A stretch of DNA of 19,790 nt, taken from the IMG/VR virus record IMGVR_UViG_2872180393_000005, positions 1-19,790 of that record. One strand, written 5' to 3'. This document shows positions 7,423-15,037 of this stretch, piece by piece; the stretch's first letter is position 1; every line of letters begins with the position of its first letter. The notes beneath the pieces were generated by a model. It saw only the letters and a list, made by a program, of their open reading frames with translations. It had not been told where the DNA came from and did no database searches. The position numbers and the translations under genes were made by a program. The DNA is from a virus. Taxonomy: Duplodnaviria > Heunggongvirae > Uroviricota > Caudoviricetes.

Positions 7423-7971
7423 ATGACCACTCAAATCTCTGTTGAAACTCTCTCCCCGATCGCCCATAACCAGATACCTGTTATTACCACTGAACTTTTG
7501 GCGCAGTTGTACGGCACAGAAGCGATTCGCATTCAGCAAAATCACGCCAGAAACGCTGAACGTTTTATTGAAGGTAAGCATTTTTATAAGTTAGTGGGCG
7601 ATGAGCTTAGAGGTATGAAGCACAGACTATCTTTAAGCGAGTCTGTGAAAATTGCCCGTAACGTTCGCTCCCTCATTCTCTGGACAGAACGCGGAGCAGC
7701 ACGTCACGCCAAAATGCTCGAAACCGATCAGGCGTGGGAAGTATTCGAAAAATTGGAAGACTGCTACTTCAACCAGTACGAGAAAGATCGGGCTACGGGG
7801 AAAATGAACATCGATATTCACCTGGCGATCCGTGATGATAAAACTGCCTTCATCCGAAGTTATGCGCCTGGTCAGCTGGTGACGGTTGAAGAAGCCCTGA
7901 TGTTGCTTAAATCGCGCGGATGGCTGGTAATGCCGCGAGATGAACTTGCCGGAAAATTAATGGAGCTTTAA
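7423..7971 (+). CDS. ORF6N/KilA-N-like DNA-binding domain protein (putative antirepressor-type regulator), paralog A, 182 aa
   Basis: ATG at 7423 with GGAG upstream; N-terminal about 105 aa roughly 75 percent identical to 10682..11239; product family is a pattern-based guess. Confidence 0.5.
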   Translation: MTTQISVETLSPIAHNQIPVITTELLAQLYGTEAIRIQQNHARNAERFIEGKHFYKLVGDELRGMKHRLSLSESVKIARNVRSLILWTERGAARHAKMLETDQAWEVFEKLEDCYFNQYEKDRATGKMNIDIHLAIRDDKTAFIRSYAPGQLVTVEEALMLLKSRGWLVMPRDELAGKLMEL

Positions 7972-7985
7972 CTGGTTAAATTAGC

Positions 7986-8011
7986 CCCGATATGGGAATT
8001 CCCATATCGGG
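7986..8011. promoter_or_regulatory. Perfect 26-bp palindrome cccgatatgggaattcccatatcggg
   Basis: Exact inverted repeat 15 nt after the 7971 stop; no downstream T-tract, so operator-like or a U-less stem-loop. Confidence 0.35.
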
Positions 8012-8183
8012 AGAACATTACCACCGGGGATAAAATGATTTGCGGTGAAAGGGAAGTTAAGTAGAATTGCTGCGGGTGCTTGAGGCTATCTGTCTCAGGC
8101 ATGAACACCAAAAGGCAGATGAGAAGCCCCAGTTAACATTACGCGTCCTGCAAGACGCTTAACATTAATCTGAGGCCAATTTC

Positions 8184-8396
8184 ATGCTAGACACATGTAG
8201 GTTAGCCTCTTACGTGCCGGAAGGCAAGGAGAAGCAGGCTATGAAGCAGCAAAAGGCGATGTTAGTCGCCCTGATCGTCATCTGTTTAACCGTCATAGTG
8301 ACGGCACTGGTAACGAGGAAAGACCTCTGTGAGGTACGAATCCGAACCGGCCAGACGGAGGTCGCTGTCTTCGTAGACTACGAATCCAGGAAGTAA
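8184..8396 (+). CDS. mok: Mok-like reading frame (in-frame N-terminal extension of hok) of a hok/sok type I toxin locus
   Basis: ORF ending at the same stop as hok and extending 19 codons upstream, the arrangement recalled for chromosomal mok/hok pairs. Confidence 0.5.
   Translation: MLDTCRLASYVPEGKEKQAMKQQKAMLVALIVICLTVIVTALVTRKDLCEVRIRTGQTEVAVFVDYESRK
8241..8396 (+). CDS. hok: Hok/Gef family membrane toxin, 51 aa
   Basis: MKQQKAMLVALIVICLTVIVTALVTRKDLCEVRIRTGQTEVAVFVDYESRK matches the Hok/Gef family closely; AAGGAG 9 nt upstream of the ATG. Confidence 0.8.
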   Translation: MKQQKAMLVALIVICLTVIVTALVTRKDLCEVRIRTGQTEVAVFVDYESRK

Positions 8397-8474
8397 GAGT
8401 GACCGGGCGGGGAGCTGATCCCATCCCCGCCCACCTCTGATGTGTCAGGCATCCTCAACGCACCCGCACTTAAC

Positions 8475-8516
8475 CCGCCCATCGCTGTGATCTCTCAGCG
8501 TTTCGGCGGGTTTTTT
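8475..8516 (+). terminator. Rho-independent terminator downstream of hok
   Basis: ccgcccatcgctg...cagcg...ggcggg stem followed by tttttt. Confidence 0.6.
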
Positions 8517-8536
8517 GTTGTTTATTTCCGGTGAAT

Positions 8537-8564
8537 TTGATTCGCGCACCTTCGCAGATAGAAT
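8537..8564 (+). promoter_or_regulatory. Sigma70-like promoter: -35 TTGATT, 16-bp spacer, -10 TAGAAT
   Basis: Good consensus match about 80 nt upstream of the 8646 ORF. Confidence 0.4.
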
Positions 8565-8645
8565 CGACTCACTTAAGTAGCGCGCAGGGAGAAGAGGGAT
8601 GGACCCCGAACAGGGGAGAGCTATTTATCTGGAAGGATTCTGAAG

Positions 8646-8933
8646 ATGAAAATCGAAGAATTGCGTGAAATTTTTAGTGAAAATGGCCTCTATGCTGTGC
8701 GCGTTGAGAATGGAGCGATTGTCAGCCATTGCCGCATTAGATGTTTGCAATCTCAACAAAGGAAGAGCGGTGCTGTGTTATTTTATTTTTGTAATGGACT
8801 TCTGACGGACGGTTTTATTTTGCGTGAGGACGAATTTGTCACATCATTACGGGTTTTGAAAGAGATTGGTTTTAAGGCTGGTTTTCTGCTTTTGCTGAAG
8901 AATAAACTCATCTACAATCTTGAGCAGGATTGA
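8646..8933 (+). CDS. Hypothetical protein, 95 aa
   Basis: ATG with AAGGA upstream; no family recognised. Confidence 0.35.
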   Translation: MKIEELREIFSENGLYAVRVENGAIVSHCRIRCLQSQQRKSGAVLFYFCNGLLTDGFILREDEFVTSLRVLKEIGFKAGFLLLLKNKLIYNLEQD

Positions 8934-8971
8934 ACTCCTGCTGTGTAACACCGTGCCACCGGAGAAAGCCG

Positions 8972-9571
8972 ATGGCACATATACAACTGGTCAAACAAAC
9001 CTCTTCCGGATTACTTCTCCCGGCGACGCCGGAGAGTTGCGATTTTCTGCATCAAATCAAAATAGGTGAGTGGATACACGCAGACTTTAAGCGTGTGCGT
9101 AACTACGCATTCCACAAGCGTTTTTTCAAACTCCTGCAACTGGGTTTCGATTACTGGACTCCGGTCGGTGGGGCGATCACGCCTCGCGAACGAAAACTGG
9201 TGTCCGGTTTCGTTGATTACCTGTGTGAATCAGTAGGCCGGGAACATACGCCAGCTCTGAGCGAAGCCGCAGAGCAATATCTGAATACAGTTGCGACACG
9301 CAGAACCCGTGATACGGCATTGCTAAAGTCGTTTGAGGCTTTCCGCGAGTGGGTAACCATTCAGGCCGGATTTTACACCGAGCATATTTATCCTGATGGT
9401 AGTCGTGGGCGCAGGGCAAAATCTATCGCATTTGCGAACATGGACGAAACCGAGTTTCAGCAGGTTTATAAATCTGTACTGAATGTGCTGTGGAACTGGA
9501 TCCTGTTCCGTAAATTCTCCTCTCCGGAGGAAGTCGAAAATGTGGCCGCGCAGCTACTGGAGTTTGCGTAA
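8972..9571 (+). CDS. DUF1367-like phage nin-region protein (YbcN-like), about 199 aa
   Basis: ATG at 8972 with GGAG 8 nt upstream; recalled DUF1367 motifs (FKRVRNYAFHKRFFKLLQLGFDYW, RAKSIAFANMDE). Confidence 0.55.
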   Translation: MAHIQLVKQTSSGLLLPATPESCDFLHQIKIGEWIHADFKRVRNYAFHKRFFKLLQLGFDYWTPVGGAITPRERKLVSGFVDYLCESVGREHTPALSEAAEQYLNTVATRRTRDTALLKSFEAFREWVTIQAGFYTEHIYPDGSRGRRAKSIAFANMDETEFQQVYKSVLNVLWNWILFRKFSSPEEVENVAAQLLEFA

Positions 9572-9861: not shown

Positions 9862-10412
9862 TTTACCCAACAAATACAGGCAAAAGCGGGGAACACCTTC
9901 GTCTCACCACGCTGGAAAGTGTCTGGATTCAGGGAAAACTGCGCATGTGGGGGCGCTGGTCGTATATTGGCGGCGGTAAGACGGGGAATATGTTCAACCA
10001 GTTGTTGGCCTCTAAAAAGCTGACAAAAACGGCAATTAACGAGGCGCTCCGGAGGATGAAAAAAGCAGGTCTGGACAAACCTGAACTTGAGGCTTTTTTG
10101 CGGGATATGATCAACGGCAAGCAAAAAAGCTGGCTGGTGCATTGTACTGATGCAGAGGCGTTATGCATTGATCGGGTGATTAGTGAAGTGCTGGCAGAAC
10201 ACCCAGGATTGATTTGTATCCTCCGGCAACGATATGAAGGGAGGGGGATGACTAAGCGAAAAATGGCTGAATTGCTGAATGATTCACACCCTGAGTGGTG
10301 TTACGCCACGTGCCGTAATCGCATAGATGCGTGGTTGAAAATGGCAGAGTTTATGCTCTATCTGCCGATGCGTGATGCATTCTCTTCCGGGGATTTAAAA
10401 ACTGTCTGTTGA
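9858..10412 (+). CDS. Putative late-gene antiterminator Q (Q-like family), 184 aa
   Basis: ATG with AGGAAGG upstream and ATGA coupling to the preceding gene; WGRW motif recalled from Q homologs; stop codon overlaps the -35 of the downstream promoter, the classic Q-pR' arrangement. Confidence 0.55.
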   Translation: MIYPTNTGKSGEHLRLTTLESVWIQGKLRMWGRWSYIGGGKTGNMFNQLLASKKLTKTAINEALRRMKKAGLDKPELEAFLRDMINGKQKSWLVHCTDAEALCIDRVISEVLAEHPGLICILRQRYEGRGMTKRKMAELLNDSHPEWCYATCRNRIDAWLKMAEFMLYLPMRDAFSSGDLKTVC

Positions 10413-10438
10413 CTCAATCTGTTATCCGGGGCTATATT
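10409..10438 (+). promoter_or_regulatory. pR'-like late promoter (module B): -35 TTGACT overlapping the Q stop, 18-bp spacer, -10 TATATT
   Basis: Position directly after Q; core and initial transcribed region duplicated in module A. Confidence 0.55.
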
Positions 10439-10498
10439 CCTCACGCGCCAGCAAAATCTGGCGTCGGGATTGGCGTCCCGGATATCGAAACGGTGCAT

Positions 10499-10519
10499 AA
10501 CCGCGCTGGCGGTTTTTTT
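10499..10519 (+). terminator. tR'-like intrinsic terminator about 60 nt downstream of the pR'-like promoter
   Basis: aaccgc-gctg-gcggtt hairpin followed by a T run. Confidence 0.55.
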
Positions 10520-10681
10520 ATGCGCTAAGCACAGTCACATTCGCGATTTATGGTGGGCTGTGTGGGGGAGTTGAGAGACTCGCCGGATGTTTCGACCGGT
10601 TACGCCAACCCTGCACAGTTCACCACCCAGCGATTGGCGTCGCAGGTGGTGAGTTAAAAACCATCGAAACGCGAGGTCGTT

Positions 10682-11239
10682 ATGACTGTTCAGATTTCTG
10701 TCAAAAACCTTTCCCCTGTTACCTATAACCAGATTCCTGTTATTACCACCGAACTTTTGGCGCAGCTTTACGGCACTGAGCCGGTGCGTATTCGCCAGAA
10801 TCATTATGAGAACAAAGTACGCTTCGTTGAAGGGAAACACTTTTTCAAAGTTGTTGGTAATGACCTTAAAGAATTGCGGGTAGCTTTAAACTACTCACAA
10901 AATCCCATCTCTCCCAAAACCCGCTCCCTCATTCTCTGGACAGAACGCGGCGCAGCCCGCCACGCAAAAATGCTCGAAACCGATCAGGCGTGGGATGTGT
11001 TCGAAAAACTGGAAGACTGCTATTTCAGTCAAAAGGAGCCGTCAACGCCAGTTTCATGCCAGAAAAGTTACGACACGCGAGTTCTCTGTTATCAGCAAGG
11101 CGGTGTCACTGTTTCCACAATTCAGTTGCGGGATGATGATATTGTTATTTCCCTTGAGTCATGGCTGGAACTGGCGAGAGCCAATGGTTGGTTTGTTGTT
11201 CGCAGAGATAAACTGGTGGAAAGGCTGATGCAGCTTTAA
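10682..11239 (+). CDS. ORF6N/KilA-N-like DNA-binding domain protein, paralog B, 185 aa; first gene of the Q-dependent late transcript
   Basis: ATG with GAGG upstream; paralog of 7423..7971 with identical block RSLILWTERGAARHAKMLETDQAW. Confidence 0.5.
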   Translation: MTVQISVKNLSPVTYNQIPVITTELLAQLYGTEPVRIRQNHYENKVRFVEGKHFFKVVGNDLKELRVALNYSQNPISPKTRSLILWTERGAARHAKMLETDQAWDVFEKLEDCYFSQKEPSTPVSCQKSYDTRVLCYQQGGVTVSTIQLRDDDIVISLESWLELARANGWFVVRRDKLVERLMQL

Positions 11240-11446: not shown

Positions 11447-11523
11447 GGCCCTTTAGCTCAGTTGGTCAGAGCGAGCGACTCATAATCGCCAGGTCGCTGG
11501 TTCAAGTCCAGCAAGGGCCACCA
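11447..11523 (+). tRNA. tRNA with CAT anticodon, Ile2 (lysidine) type rather than Met
   Basis: 77-nt cloverleaf folded by hand; anticodon loop ctCATaa; close to recalled E. coli ileX; encoded CCA. Confidence 0.8.
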
Positions 11524-11524
11524 A

Positions 11525-11601
11525 CCACCACTAGCTCATCCGGATAGAGCATCAACCTTCTAAGTTGACGGTGCGAGGTTCGAGTCCTCGGTGGTGGGCC
11601 A
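11525..11601 (+). tRNA. tRNA-Arg (TCT anticodon, reads AGA)
   Basis: 77-nt cloverleaf; anticodon stem tcaac/gttga with loop ctTCTaa; T-loop ttcgagt; encoded CCA. Confidence 0.8.
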
Positions 11602-11603
11602 GC

Positions 11604-11679
<76 letters not shown>

Positions 11680-11682
11680 TAT

Positions 11683-11757
<75 letters not shown>

Positions 11758-13880: not shown

Positions 13881-14699
13881 TTAAGCAGCCATCTGATGAT
13901 ATTTTTCCCTGAAGGCTGCCGGGGAGATATTCCCCAGACGAGAGTGACGACGCTGACGATTGTAGAAAATCTCAATGTATTCCCGTATTACTGAGATGGC
14001 TTCATCCCGGTTATTAAAACGATAGTGGCTCAGGCTCTCATTTTTCAGCGTTCCCCAGAAGCTTTCCATCGGAGCGTTGTCGTAACAGTTACCTTTACGC
14101 GACATTGATGTTTTCAGACCAAACTGCTCCTGTATGACCCGGTAATCGTATGCGCAGTACTGTGAACCTCGATCAGAGTGGTGGATTAGCCCGGCAGGTG
14201 GGCGCTGGCTCCTGAGCGCCATAAACAGGGCTTTACCTGTCAGCTCTTTTGTCATGCGCTCTCCCATGGCGTAGCCGACAATTTCGCACGTATAAACATC
14301 TTTGATGCCAGCGAGGTACAACCATCCCTCCTGTGTGGCAACATACGTCAGGTCCGCCACCCAGACCTGATTTGGTGCTGTAGGAGCGAACGTCTGGTTC
14401 AGCAGATTTGGCGCAACTGGCAGATTGTGGTTCGGGTTCGTAGTCGCTCTGAACTTGCGTTTCTGCTTACAGCGTAGCCTTAGCTCCTTACGAAGACGTG
14501 CCAGTCGGTCACGACCAACGATGATGCCATTCTCTGCCAGCTCCGTCTGGAGCCGCCGGGTTCCATATGTTTCGCGAGTGCGGATATGTGCCACCTTAAT
14601 CTCCAGTTTTAGCCGCTCATCACTTTGTTTTCTGTCTGAGGGTTCATGCTGTACCCGGTTGTAATAACCGCTCCTGGATACACCAAATACCTGACACAT
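13881..14699 (-). CDS. IS600 transposase OrfB (one substitution, W to R, relative to copy 1)
   Basis: YYNRVQ here versus YYNWVQ in copies 1 and 2. Confidence 0.85.
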   Translation of the reverse strand: MCQVFGVSRSGYYNRVQHEPSDRKQSDERLKLEIKVAHIRTRETYGTRRLQTELAENGIIVGRDRLARLRKELRLRCKQKRKFRATTNPNHNLPVAPNLLNQTFAPTAPNQVWVADLTYVATQEGWLYLAGIKDVYTCEIVGYAMGERMTKELTGKALFMALRSQRPPAGLIHHSDRGSQYCAYDYRVIQEQFGLKTSMSRKGNCYDNAPMESFWGTLKNESLSHYRFNNRDEAISVIREYIEIFYNRQRRHSRLGNISPAAFREKYHQMAA

Positions 14700-14734
14700 C
14701 GCTTCAATGGGAAATTGTTGTCGCCATTGTTCGA

Positions 14735-15037
14735 TTAACGCGTATTTTTCAGCGACTCCTGTGCAAAATACGCTGTTGCTTTTTTTAATATATCTCGCTC
14801 AAGGCGAGCTTCATTTAACGCCTTACGCAGTTGCAGAATTTCAGATTCCAGTTCAGCCACCGTGCGGGAACCAGGAGTACCGAGCCCTTTTCTGGCGGCG
14901 GTAACCCATTGTCCTAAAGTGCCTTCAGGAAGGGATAATCGGGAAGCGCCTTCACTGATCGAAAGTTGATTTTCAAGAACCGTTCTGACAGCTTCGGCTT
15001 TGAACTCTTTAGAGTAACGTTGGGTTTTTCTGCTCAT
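14735..15037 (-). CDS. IS600 transposase OrfA
   Basis: Protein identical to copies 1 and 2. Confidence 0.9.
   Translation of the reverse strand: MSRKTQRYSKEFKAEAVRTVLENQLSISEGASRLSLPEGTLGQWVTAARKGLGTPGSRTVAELESEILQLRKALNEARLERDILKKATAYFAQESLKNTR

Follow-up and report, generated by a model that had tools for sequence, protein, structure and literature searches.

[quoted passage not shown] The small Hok-like reading frame at 8184-8396 of the window (the whole stretch of 19,790 nucleotides that was analysed), which belongs to the remnant of a Shigella prophage with ipaH and copies of IS600, raises the question of whether it is part of a complete cassette, how such a cassette would work and what it might do for its carrier. 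We find a structurally complete hok/mok/sok locus of the hokD/hokW clade, for which the canonical Hok/Sok mechanism is the most likely reading, with a probability of roughly 85%. The interval proposed by the first-pass annotation was right for the reading frame and too narrow for the functional unit, which spans about 8040-8516, i.e., some 145 bp more upstream and 120 bp more downstream (Table 1). The cassette is an ordinary, already-known system and adds little that is new, identical proteins being already annotated in Shigella genomes; its practical value lies in annotation, since mok, sok and the mRNA are unannotated in these genomes.

Genomic setting

The locus lies in the early-right (nin-type) region of the prophage; its neighbors share its strand, and a Q-like gene and the lysis genes lie downstream of it. 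In identical contigs, hok is followed by Rem (PF27490) and DUF1367, an order also seen in K-12. Most of the early region has given way to IS600, of which there are three copies, and Pfam scans together with the list of open reading frames revealed no repressor, replication or virion structural genes in the window. By exact protein look-up, the window matches records of the S. boydii/dysenteriae type; four Shigella assemblies contain the locus with 100% identity, and homologous cassettes are present in 4928 of 5426 complete E. coli genomes. A look-up through a related Mok protein, aimed at the cssrC locus of S. flexneri 301, led to other Shigella prophage remnants with the arrangement QueH-hok-rem and to no verifiable record of that strain. 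A strong isrK/C4/ORF6N promoter is found just upstream of the locus; it shares the strand of hok and is convergent with sok.

Table 1. Features of the hok/mok/sok locus (positions in the window)
Feature	Position	Strand	Basis or remark
hok promoter: -35 TTGCGG (8040-8045), 16-nt spacer, -10 TAGAAT (8062-8067)	8040-8067	+	sequence read
Full-length hok mRNA, predicted, ~440 nt	8074-8516	+	5' end at RF01794 position 1; 3' end at terminator
3'-trimmed hok mRNA, predicted, end near 8433, ~360 nt	8074-8433	+	
tac element, mRNA 5' end	8074-8085	+	pairs with fbi, or in local 5' hairpin with 8092-8102
Sok antisense RNA, predicted, +1 at 8192, ~71 nt by analogy with sokW	8122-8192	-	annotated sokW/sokC starts
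ucb (anti-SD box) AAGCCCC	8124-8130	+	pairs with mok SD; invariant in aligned hok loci
mok Shine-Dalgarno (SD) GAGG	8172-8175	+	sequence read; GAGGC invariant in aligned hok loci
mok reading frame, 70 aa, in frame with hok	8184-8396	+	list of open reading frames; geometry as mokC, mokW
sok promoter: -35 TTGCCT (8227 to 8222), 17-nt spacer, -10 TAACCT (8204 to 8199)	8199-8227	-	
hok Shine-Dalgarno AAGGAG	8226-8231	+	sequence read; CAAGGAGAA invariant in aligned hok loci
hok toxin gene, 51 aa, in-frame ATG at 8241	8241-8396	+	PF01848; HokW identity
TACG at Tyr47 codon, putative TadA A-to-I editing motif	8379-8382	+	codon read-out
3' stem-loop, expected 3'-trimming stop	8405-8432	+	fold -20.9 kcal/mol
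3' fold-back region	8440-8465	+	8440-8452 pairs with 8184-8196 (mok start/Sok target); 8453-8465 is fbi
Intrinsic terminator: stem 8474-8479/8505-8510, inner hairpin, T6 8511-8516	8474-8516	+	-22.8 kcal/mol, z -5.9

The Hok toxin and the Mok frame

The 51-aa protein read from the internal ATG (MKQQKAMLVALIVICLTVIVTALVTRKDLCEVRIRTGQTEVAVFVDYESRK) had been taken for a Hok/Gef toxin, and it matches the full Pfam HOK_GEF model (PF01848, positions 1-42) with 81.8 bits against a cut-off of 22 (E 2.6e-23). Its score for NCBIfam NF007279, a subfamily of the Hok family toxins, is below the cut-off (55.5 vs 73 bits), and the NCBIfam search returned only sub-threshold Hok and HokA matches. In public records, proteins identical or nearly identical to it are named "Hok/Gef family protein" and "HokD": the identical 51-aa protein is a "Hok/Gef family protein [Shigella]", and PGAP calls close relatives HokD. 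The alignment gives 49 of 51 residues identical to HokW, 45/51 to K-12 HokD and 40/50 to HokC. The N-terminal helix is hydrophobic, with a mean hydropathy over 19 residues that peaks at 2.9 around residues 7-25. The motif TRK.LCE, C30 and Y47 are invariant in the protein alignment, so that the periplasmic tail carries both the Cys and the editable Tyr. Y47 is encoded as TAC followed by G; the TACG at this codon is a TadA A-to-I editing motif (Tyr to Cys) in hokC, hokD and hokE (PMC5630033, PMC12214031), and by analogy the same codon may be edited here. In a survey, 42 of 45 tested Hok homologues were toxic (bioRxiv 10.1101/2025.08.07.668861).

The extended frame around hok, described in the first-pass annotation as mok-like, has the geometry of the annotated pairs mokC/hokC and mokW/hokW, and an identical 70-aa Mok protein was found in Shigella boydii records. 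A mok in a different frame, as in R1, was considered and rejected: of the listed plus-strand open reading frames (20 aa or more), none but the in-frame one extends across the hok start. The AAGGAG that had been assigned to the mok frame is indeed present, but it stands 9 nt before the hok ATG and is therefore the SD of hok, that of mok being GAGG, as in R1 (PMC9841398). The complement of the hok SD also contributes to the -35 region of sok, and in the full-length fold the hok SD is partly paired with 8385-8387.

Promoter, mRNA and folds

The promoters of hok and sok and the terminator all escaped a simple promoter and terminator scan, whose thresholds for hexamers and loops probably exclude them; the terminator was probably missed because of its 25-nt loop, the limit being 3-8 nt. 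Promoters and terminator were therefore placed by homology and folding. Across 9 aligned hok loci, K-12 hokC and R1-like plasmid loci among them, the -10 box of hok (TAnAAT) does not vary; it lies 6 nt upstream of where the Rfam leader match begins. This match, to RF01794, covers 8074-8246 on the plus strand with 96.3 bits (E 5.6e-21, gathering score 59); close relatives of hokD/hokW type score 106-115 and K-12 hokC 118, so the score is the lowest among close relatives, which we attribute to the leader deletion described below. The 397-nt mRNA folds with -163.3 kcal/mol (z -7.5) and, together with the Rfam match, this excludes a chance origin of the locus.

In the minimum-energy fold, the 5' end is closed by 12 pairs between tac and fbi (probability 0.97-1.0), a helix which is 99.2% paired in 51 relatives, and the U4-A pair found here is C4-G in the R1-like locus L017, a compensating change. 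The pairs of the whole 3' fold-back region, tac-fbi and mok start alike, have probabilities of 0.77-1.0 and an RNAduplex energy of -25.8 kcal/mol, and C8127, C8128 and C8130 of ucb pair with G8175, G8174 and G8172 of the mok SD (0.99 in the full-length fold). This closed structure is 92.5% paired in the 51 distinct relatives, against 33-42% when the partners are slid by 1-3 columns, and one pair of the upper tac stem alternates between A-U and G-C (31:17). Folded alone, the leader forms a local 5' hairpin; in the Rfam consensus and in constrained folds, ucb pairs with tac instead.

Downstream of the frame, the GC-rich inverted repeat noticed earlier proved to be a stable hairpin in which 8405-8413 pairs with 8424-8432 (z -3.9). 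The hairpin would protect the trimmed mRNA. It is kept in relatives by compensating changes (e.g., GGCGGGAGA/TCTCCCGCC vs GGCGAGGGA/TCCCTCGCC), and its R1 equivalent is required for mRNA stability (PMC9841398). The suggested intrinsic terminator also holds, with its T6 tract and the folding energy given in Table 1; at the same site, relatives carry a compact terminator, AACCCGC-TTCG-GCGGGTTTTT.

The predicted antisense RNA

Opposite the mok start, a tentative antisense promoter, TTGCCT-17-TAACCT, had been pointed out. It is present in the sequence, its -10 box coincides with that of sokW, and it aligns with TTGCCT-17-TATCCT of the R1-like plasmid locus; compared with 933W, only 1 of 35 bases differs, in the spacer. 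The -10 hexamer agrees with the consensus at only 3 of 6 positions. In sokW, changing the -10 box AGGTTA to CGGCTC (primer YO-421) abolished the protection (Takada et al., PMC8621323). The annotated starts of sokW and sokC are both 8 nt inside mok; given this and the promoter position, which is that of sokW and R1-like loci, 8192 is the likely start of Sok and about 8122 its end. The RNA so defined is predicted to fold into a 15-nt free 5' tail and a long hairpin (-28.7 kcal/mol, z -4.7).

Comparison with known loci

The nearest studied homologue is hokW-mokW-sokW of Stx2 phage 933W/Sakai prophage Sp5 (AF125520), which shares about 90% nucleotide identity with window positions 8032-8475, the same in-frame mok, the same start of sok relative to mok and the same -10 and -35 hexamers. 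HokW is toxic and located in the inner membrane, and sokW neutralises it when transcribed from the native sokW promoter (Takada et al. 2021, PMC8621323). The tac element is identical in 933W, and the fbi region differs at one base just 3' of the pairing (8468). The 71-nt Sok region has 8 differences, 6 of which fall in the 5' recognition tail and the mok start, and cross-neutralisation may therefore be limited. The 933W locus also has neither the 3-nt leader deletion nor a hairpin terminator after fbi, and it sits at the right end of the phage instead of the nin-type region.

hokD (relF) of the K-12 Qin prophage occupies the same position, hok being followed by rem and ydfU (DUF1367), with 80% nucleotide identity over 8227-8978. 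There, homology does not extend upstream of the hok SD (8227): relBE stands in place of the promoter, the leader, the mok start and sok, so that hokD is a third gene of the relBE operon without its own leader or sok, an arrangement not seen here. The window keeps all these elements and thus displays the locus that is truncated in K-12. K-12 hokC (gef) also has an in-frame mokC sharing the hok stop; it has an IS186 20 bp downstream of the frame and a shorter Sok hairpin, and the RNAduplex search in hokC found no fbi-type partner for the 5' end.

The R1 and R1-like IncF hok/mok/sok loci present the same order of elements, with conserved tac (GCTTGAGGC), ucb (AAGCCCC), mok SD (GAGGC), hok SD (CAAGGAGAA) and position of the sok promoter, although Hok is only about 23/51 identical. 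In L017, hok and mok use different frames, and mok is annotated as DUF5431. R1 further differs by its plasmid setting, in which the proven role is post-segregational killing.

Proposed mechanism

Transcription, processing, toxicity and neutralisation would follow those of the homologues, the mechanism having been defined for R1, where mutations also showed the importance of tac/ucb and of the 3' stem-loop (PMC9841398). From the weak promoter at 8040-8067, a stable mRNA of about 440 nt would start at 8074, and during its synthesis the 5' end would fold as the local hairpin. In the finished RNA, fbi (8453-8465) would clamp tac (8074-8085), while 8440-8452 would cover the mok start and the Sok target, and ucb (8124-8130) the mok SD; closed in this way, the RNA would be neither translated nor bound by Sok. 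Slow trimming of the 3' end down to the hairpin at 8405-8432 would then remove fbi, allowing tac to pair with ucb and exposing the mok SD and the Sok target. The short-lived Sok (minus strand, 8192 to about 8122) would pair with the mok start and block translation of mok, hence of hok, the duplex being degraded. Once the supply of Sok stops, Mok and Hok would be translated and the 51-aa Hok would damage the inner membrane.

The leader deletion and possible attenuation

The leader carries a net deletion of 3 nt at 8120/8121 that is absent from 67 IMG/VR relatives and from the other relatives fetched; the undeleted leader with the 3 nt restored reads GGCAGATAGAGAAAAGCCCC. The exact 46-nt pattern spanning the deletion had no match in the species-representative genome collection. 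With the deletion, the tac stem-loop of the active form has a predicted energy of -18.6 kcal/mol, compared with -24.1 to -30.3 in relatives (5.5-11.7 weaker), and as a consequence the local 5' hairpin becomes the minimum-energy fold of the leader. The U-rich stretch that follows the Sok hairpin becomes shorter as well.

These changes raise the question of whether the cassette, although complete, is attenuated or silent in function, in the way reported for the chromosomal hok loci of E. coli K-12, the deletion favoring the closed or metastable state so that Hok is rarely made and the locus is a passenger relic. Besides the confinement of the deletion to this Shigella allele and the weakened stem-loop, such a scenario is favored by the heavy degradation of the prophage, with its three IS600 copies and no recognisable immunity region, and by sister contigs in which an IS-type insertion lies at the mok start of the same allele, indicating that the host can do without the locus. 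In addition, E. coli chromosomal hok loci were reported as inactive for post-segregational killing (bioRxiv 10.1101/2025.08.07.668861). The predicted probability of tac-ucb pairing in the trimmed RNA, 0.00 here and 0.38 after in silico restoration of the 3 nt, seems to point the same way, but it is only 0.01-0.16 in functional relatives including hokW, so it does not discriminate and was not counted as evidence. Against attenuation, the outer tac/ucb pairs, positions at which single substitutions abolish the toxicity of R1 hok (PMC9841398), are intact, as are the Hok frame, both SD sites, the sok promoter, fbi and the 3' hairpin, and the locus is fully conserved in the four assemblies. We consider attenuation unlikely, if worth keeping in mind, and retain the canonical mechanism.

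A related and more doubtful proposal is that this Shigella-specific deletion, placed between the upper tac stem and ucb, weakens the active leader fold and shortens the Sok U tail, yielding a "locked" variant that would be tolerated in single copy and would help to retain the ipaH-carrying remnant. Read-through from the upstream isrK/C4/ORF6N promoter, rather than plasmid-style gene loss, could control the supply of Sok. If active, the cassette may aid in keeping this prophage remnant in the Shigella chromosome.

Possible roles in the phage cycle

The first-pass annotation suggested addiction or abortive infection as possible roles. The nearest studied homologue, hokW-sokW, instead speeds lysis and phage release upon prophage induction: sokW is lost in a RecA-dependent manner, HokW appears about 1 h before endolysin, and the phage yield is two-fold lower without the locus (Takada et al., PMC8621323). 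The present cassette could have the same role, Sok being lost upon induction and Hok acting before holin and endolysin, and its close identity to hokW-sokW at both nucleotide and protein levels as well as its position upstream of the Q-like and lysis genes are consistent with this. However, the prophage is a remnant with IS600 copies and none of the repressor, replication or virion genes searched for, which makes a productive induction unlikely, and hokW is located elsewhere in its phage. We therefore regard a lysis role as improbable, to about the same degree as attenuation.

Prophages commonly carry defence cargo, and this is also an argument for a role in phage exclusion: a lytic phage shuts down host transcription, Sok decays, and Hok would kill the cell before the burst. 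In figures cited in PMC8621323, R1 hok/sok on a high-copy plasmid lowered the plating efficiency of T4 by 42% and the plaque size by about 85%. That effect was nevertheless obtained from a multicopy plasmid, while the locus here is single-copy with weak promoters; Hok had no match in PADLOC, and a large survey describes hok as not enriched near defence systems (bioRxiv 10.1101/2025.08.07.668861). Exclusion appears less probable than the lysis role.

The Rfam match and cssrC

An Rfam search had been recommended to find the sok RNA and, while RF01794 was indeed matched, the match lies on the hok-sense strand and represents the mRNA leader, not the antitoxin; its name, "sok antitoxin (CssrC)", marks the wrong strand for the latter. 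Taken literally, the name would make the plus-strand RNA at 8074-8246 (96 bits) the Sok antitoxin sRNA, a reading we reject as having next to no chance of being right, since the match runs on the hok strand into the hok ATG, the model falls in the K-12 control on the hokC strand with the annotated sokC opposite, and cssrC matches a trimmed hok mRNA in size rather than a Sok of 60-70 nt. Northern blotting in S. flexneri 301 showed cssrC, a chromosome-encoded sRNA, at about 340 nt (Peng et al. 2011, PMC3071730); it may derive from the orthologous locus, and its length fits the trimmed mRNA predicted here (360 nt). A CssrB Rfam match is found downstream of the hok leader and on the same strand as the leader, both RNAs sharing a strand in strain 301 too, at a distance of 10.2 kb compared with about 17.8 kb between cssrB and cssrC in that strain.

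Identity of the Locus and Its Reading Frames

The locus is a hok/mok/sok system, as the first-pass annotation had proposed, and an ordinary one of an already known kind: the sequence and structure features that define the family are found in its sequence and predicted folds, the tac/ucb alternative being a possible rather than a favoured structure. The 51-residue Hok/Gef toxin was confirmed by Pfam, the peptide covering the entire HOK_GEF model (81.8 bits against a cut-off of 22, E 2.6e-23), and the surrounding mok frame does hold the hok start codon in frame. That frame is real, but the interval 8184-8396 proposed for the locus spans the reading frame only. Similarly, the AAGGAG attributed to mok is present but serves hok: lying 9 nt ahead of the hok ATG, it is therefore the hok ribosome-binding site, and the mok site is GAGG. 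Codon 47 of Hok (Tyr) reads TAC followed by G (8379-8382), which is a TadA editing motif; editing at the equivalent site changes Tyr to Cys in K-12 hokC, hokD and hokE mRNAs and, by analogy, could create here a second periplasmic cysteine in addition to Cys30.

Features of the locus and of its surroundings (window coordinates)
Feature	Position	Strand	Remarks
yebY with ryeA/ryeB	1-607
integrase	735-1811	-
IS600 (three copies)	~2028-3184, 4082-5238, 13881-15037
RalA	3440-3618
hok -35 box TTGCGG	8040-8045	+	upstream of leader start 8074
hok -10 box TAGAAT	8062-8067	+	upstream of leader start 8074
mok SD GAGG	8172-8175	+	sequence
mok, 70 aa	8184-8396	+	ORF list
Sok RNA (predicted)	8192 to ~8122	-	start from sokW/sokC position; end from 71-nt sokW
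sok -10 TAACCT	8204->8199	-	sequence; six nt upstream of Sok start
sok -35 TTGCCT	8227->8222	-	sequence; spacer of 17 nt to -10
hok SD AAGGAG	8226-8231	+	sequence
hok, 51 aa, MKQQKAMLVALIVICLTVIVTALVTRKDLCEVRIRTGQTEVAVFVDYESRK	ATG 8241	+	translation; in frame within mok
GC-rich 3' stem-loop	8405-8413 with 8424-8432	+	fold -20.9 kcal/mol
terminator hairpin, then T6	8474-8516	+	fold -22.8 kcal/mol, z -5.9
four tRNAs	11447-11754
ipaH E3 ligase gene	16401-18116	-
CssrB match	18245-18427
pphA	18855-19514

Hok is identical at 49 of 51 residues to HokW, from the homologous hokW-mokW-sokW locus of the Stx2 phage 933W, at 45/51 to K-12 HokD, at 40/50 to HokC and at about 23/51 to the Hok of an R1-like plasmid. 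The cassette (~8032-8478) shares ~90% DNA identity with 933W, and homologous DNA occurs in 4928 of 5426 complete E. coli genomes, with an identity never above 97%. Public Shigella records (dysenteriae, boydii) contain proteins identical to this Hok and Mok as "Hok/Gef family protein", and four assemblies match the 501-bp locus at 100% identity. Its hok-rem-DUF1367-ybcO-Q-like order is that of hokD-rem-ydfU in Qin, the K-12 cryptic prophage, except that in Qin relBE stands in place of the promoter, leader, mok start and sok, which is why K-12 homology starts only at 8227. The window thus preserves a hokD-type locus in full, with the regulatory half that K-12 hokD lacks; unlike the R1-like mok, its mok is in frame with hok. 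The enrichment of hok in prophages is already documented in a preprint (bioRxiv 10.1101/2025.08.07.668861).

Leader and Antisense Gene

An Rfam search returned RF01794, named "sok antitoxin (CssrC)", with 96.3 bits (gathering score 59) at 8074-8246 on the plus strand, which is the hok strand, the match ending in the hok ATG. Run on K-12 as a control, the same search placed RF01794 on the hokC strand (502-654 of the fetched locus), the annotated sokC being on the opposite strand. The family therefore models the leader of the hok mRNA, and Sok corresponds to the reverse complement of a portion of that leader; the plus-strand match as the antitoxin itself was ruled out by this control. Annotating such matches as the antitoxin puts Sok on the wrong strand and makes it ~100 nt too long.

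In the annotations of 933W (mokW, hokW, sokW) and K-12 (mokC, hokC, sokC), mok is in frame with hok, ending at the same stop codon, and the start of Sok lies 8 nt within the mok frame. The antisense promoter tentatively suggested at first pass, TTGCCT-17-TAACCT, lies exactly where these starts predict. Its reading as the sok promoter rests on its near-identity with 933W (one spacer base different over 35 bp), its alignment with TTGCCT-17-TATCCT of the R1-like locus and the finding by Takada et al. that changing the sokW -10 from AGGTTA to CGGCTC (primer YO-421) abolished protection from HokW, which sokW in trans partially recovered (PMC8621323). The predicted Sok fold is a long hairpin with a 15-nt free 5' tail (-28.7 kcal/mol, z -4.7).

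The hok -10 box is unchanged across nine aligned hok loci. A simple consensus scan detected neither the promoters nor the 8474-8516 terminator; its sole sigma-70-type match within 7950-8650 was TTGATT-16-TAGAAT at 8537-8564 (9/12 matches), between the hok terminator and rem (8646-8933). The sequence CCCGATATGGGAATTCCCATATCGGG (7986-8011), a palindrome without mismatch over 26 nt, lies 15 nt past the stop of an ORF6N gene and ~30 nt before the hok -35; no T-run follows it. It might act as a block to transcription or as a site of protein binding.

Predicted mRNA Fold and Its Conservation

The RNA 8074-8470 (397 nt) folds at -163.3 kcal/mol (z -7.5). In this predicted fold, the 5'-end element tac (8074-8085) pairs with its 3' partner fbi (8453-8465), 8440-8452 with the mok start and Sok-target region (8184-8196), and the anti-SD box ucb (8126-8130) with the mok SD; pair probabilities were 0.77-1.0, terminator included or not. 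As modelled, this is the closed, untranslatable conformation reported for plasmid R1 (PMC9841398). The GC-rich inverted repeat and the intrinsic terminator of the first-pass annotation were both recovered; compensating changes preserve the former among relatives, and the equivalent R1 stem-loop is required to protect the trimmed mRNA (PMC9841398). In relatives, a compact terminator, AACCCGC-TTCG-GCGGGTTTTT, immediately follows fbi (alignment columns 400-437); the window and E. coli FDAARGOS_944 have a loop insertion of ~24 nt with an inner hairpin.

From 80 relatives gathered from viral contigs, 51 distinct mRNAs were aligned. The window-derived structure was 92.5% paired over them, against 33-42% with partners slid by 1-3 columns; the 92.5% is inflated by deriving the structure from one alignment member, and most pairs are invariant. 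The tac-fbi helix was 99.2% paired; its position 4 goes from U-A in the window's clade to C-G in the R1-like locus, and one upper tac stem pair alternates between A-U and G-C (31:17). The mok start/Sok 5'-tail segment (columns 107-128, window ~8176-8197) is hypervariable, with at least 10 alleles among the 51 relatives, the cassette outside it being conserved at ~90% or more; selection against cross-talk between co-resident hok/sok loci would be expected to leave such a pattern.

A Deletion in the Leader

In the segment that separates the upper tac stem from ucb, the window carries a net 3-nt deletion at 8120/8121 (with G8123 and T8093), reading GGCAGAT/GAGAAGCCCC against GGCAGATAGAGAAAAGCCCC. 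It is shared by four identical Shigella assemblies and absent from 67 IMG/VR viral-contig relatives and the other fetched E. coli and plasmid loci. With it, the RF01794 score falls below that of close hokD/hokW-type relatives, the predicted tac stem-loop drops to -18.6 kcal/mol (-24.1 to -30.3 in relatives), so that a local 5' hairpin becomes the minimum-energy fold of the leader, and the U-rich segment following the Sok hairpin is predicted to be shorter. One possible reading, given a weaker predicted active leader fold and a shorter U-rich tail of Sok, is an attenuated allele. We hold this as a minority view, because the outer tac/ucb pairs, in which single substitutions abolish R1 toxicity (PMC9841398), are intact and folding predictions for the trimmed RNA fail to distinguish the window allele from functional ones.

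Function and Prophage Setting

The canonical hok/sok mechanism is most likely, and by analogy with hokW-sokW and R1 the locus would be transcribed, trimmed, toxic and neutralised. hokW-sokW brings growth arrest and lysis earlier after induction and raises phage release about two-fold (PMC8621323); for R1 hok/sok, plasmid addiction and partial T4 exclusion are mentioned, by citation, in the same article. The yebY-pphA span, with its integrase, three IS600 copies, RalA, ipaH and CssrB match, marks the window as a decayed lambdoid prophage of Shigella, and no complete E. coli genome had more than 37% of the window matched in one place. Since this prophage looks non-inducible, retention of the remnant by addiction, or mere persistence, seems more plausible than help in lysis.

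Two IMG/VR sister contigs (L028, L031) carry the same allele (100% identity over 8187-8600) with IS-family transposase sequence (DDE_Tnp_1/DUF4096-type, likewise in L004 and L006) abutting the mok start at 8186/8187. It takes the place of everything upstream of the mok start, so that the hok promoter and leader are gone and almost nothing of sok is left; inactivation of the locus is thus tolerated without loss of the host. Finally, two modules (7141-7971 and 10403-11239; 78-90% identical, on the hok strand), each with an isrK-like RNA, a C4-type antisense RNA (a1/b1 targets) and an ORF6N-domain gene, flank the hok-to-Q-like segment.
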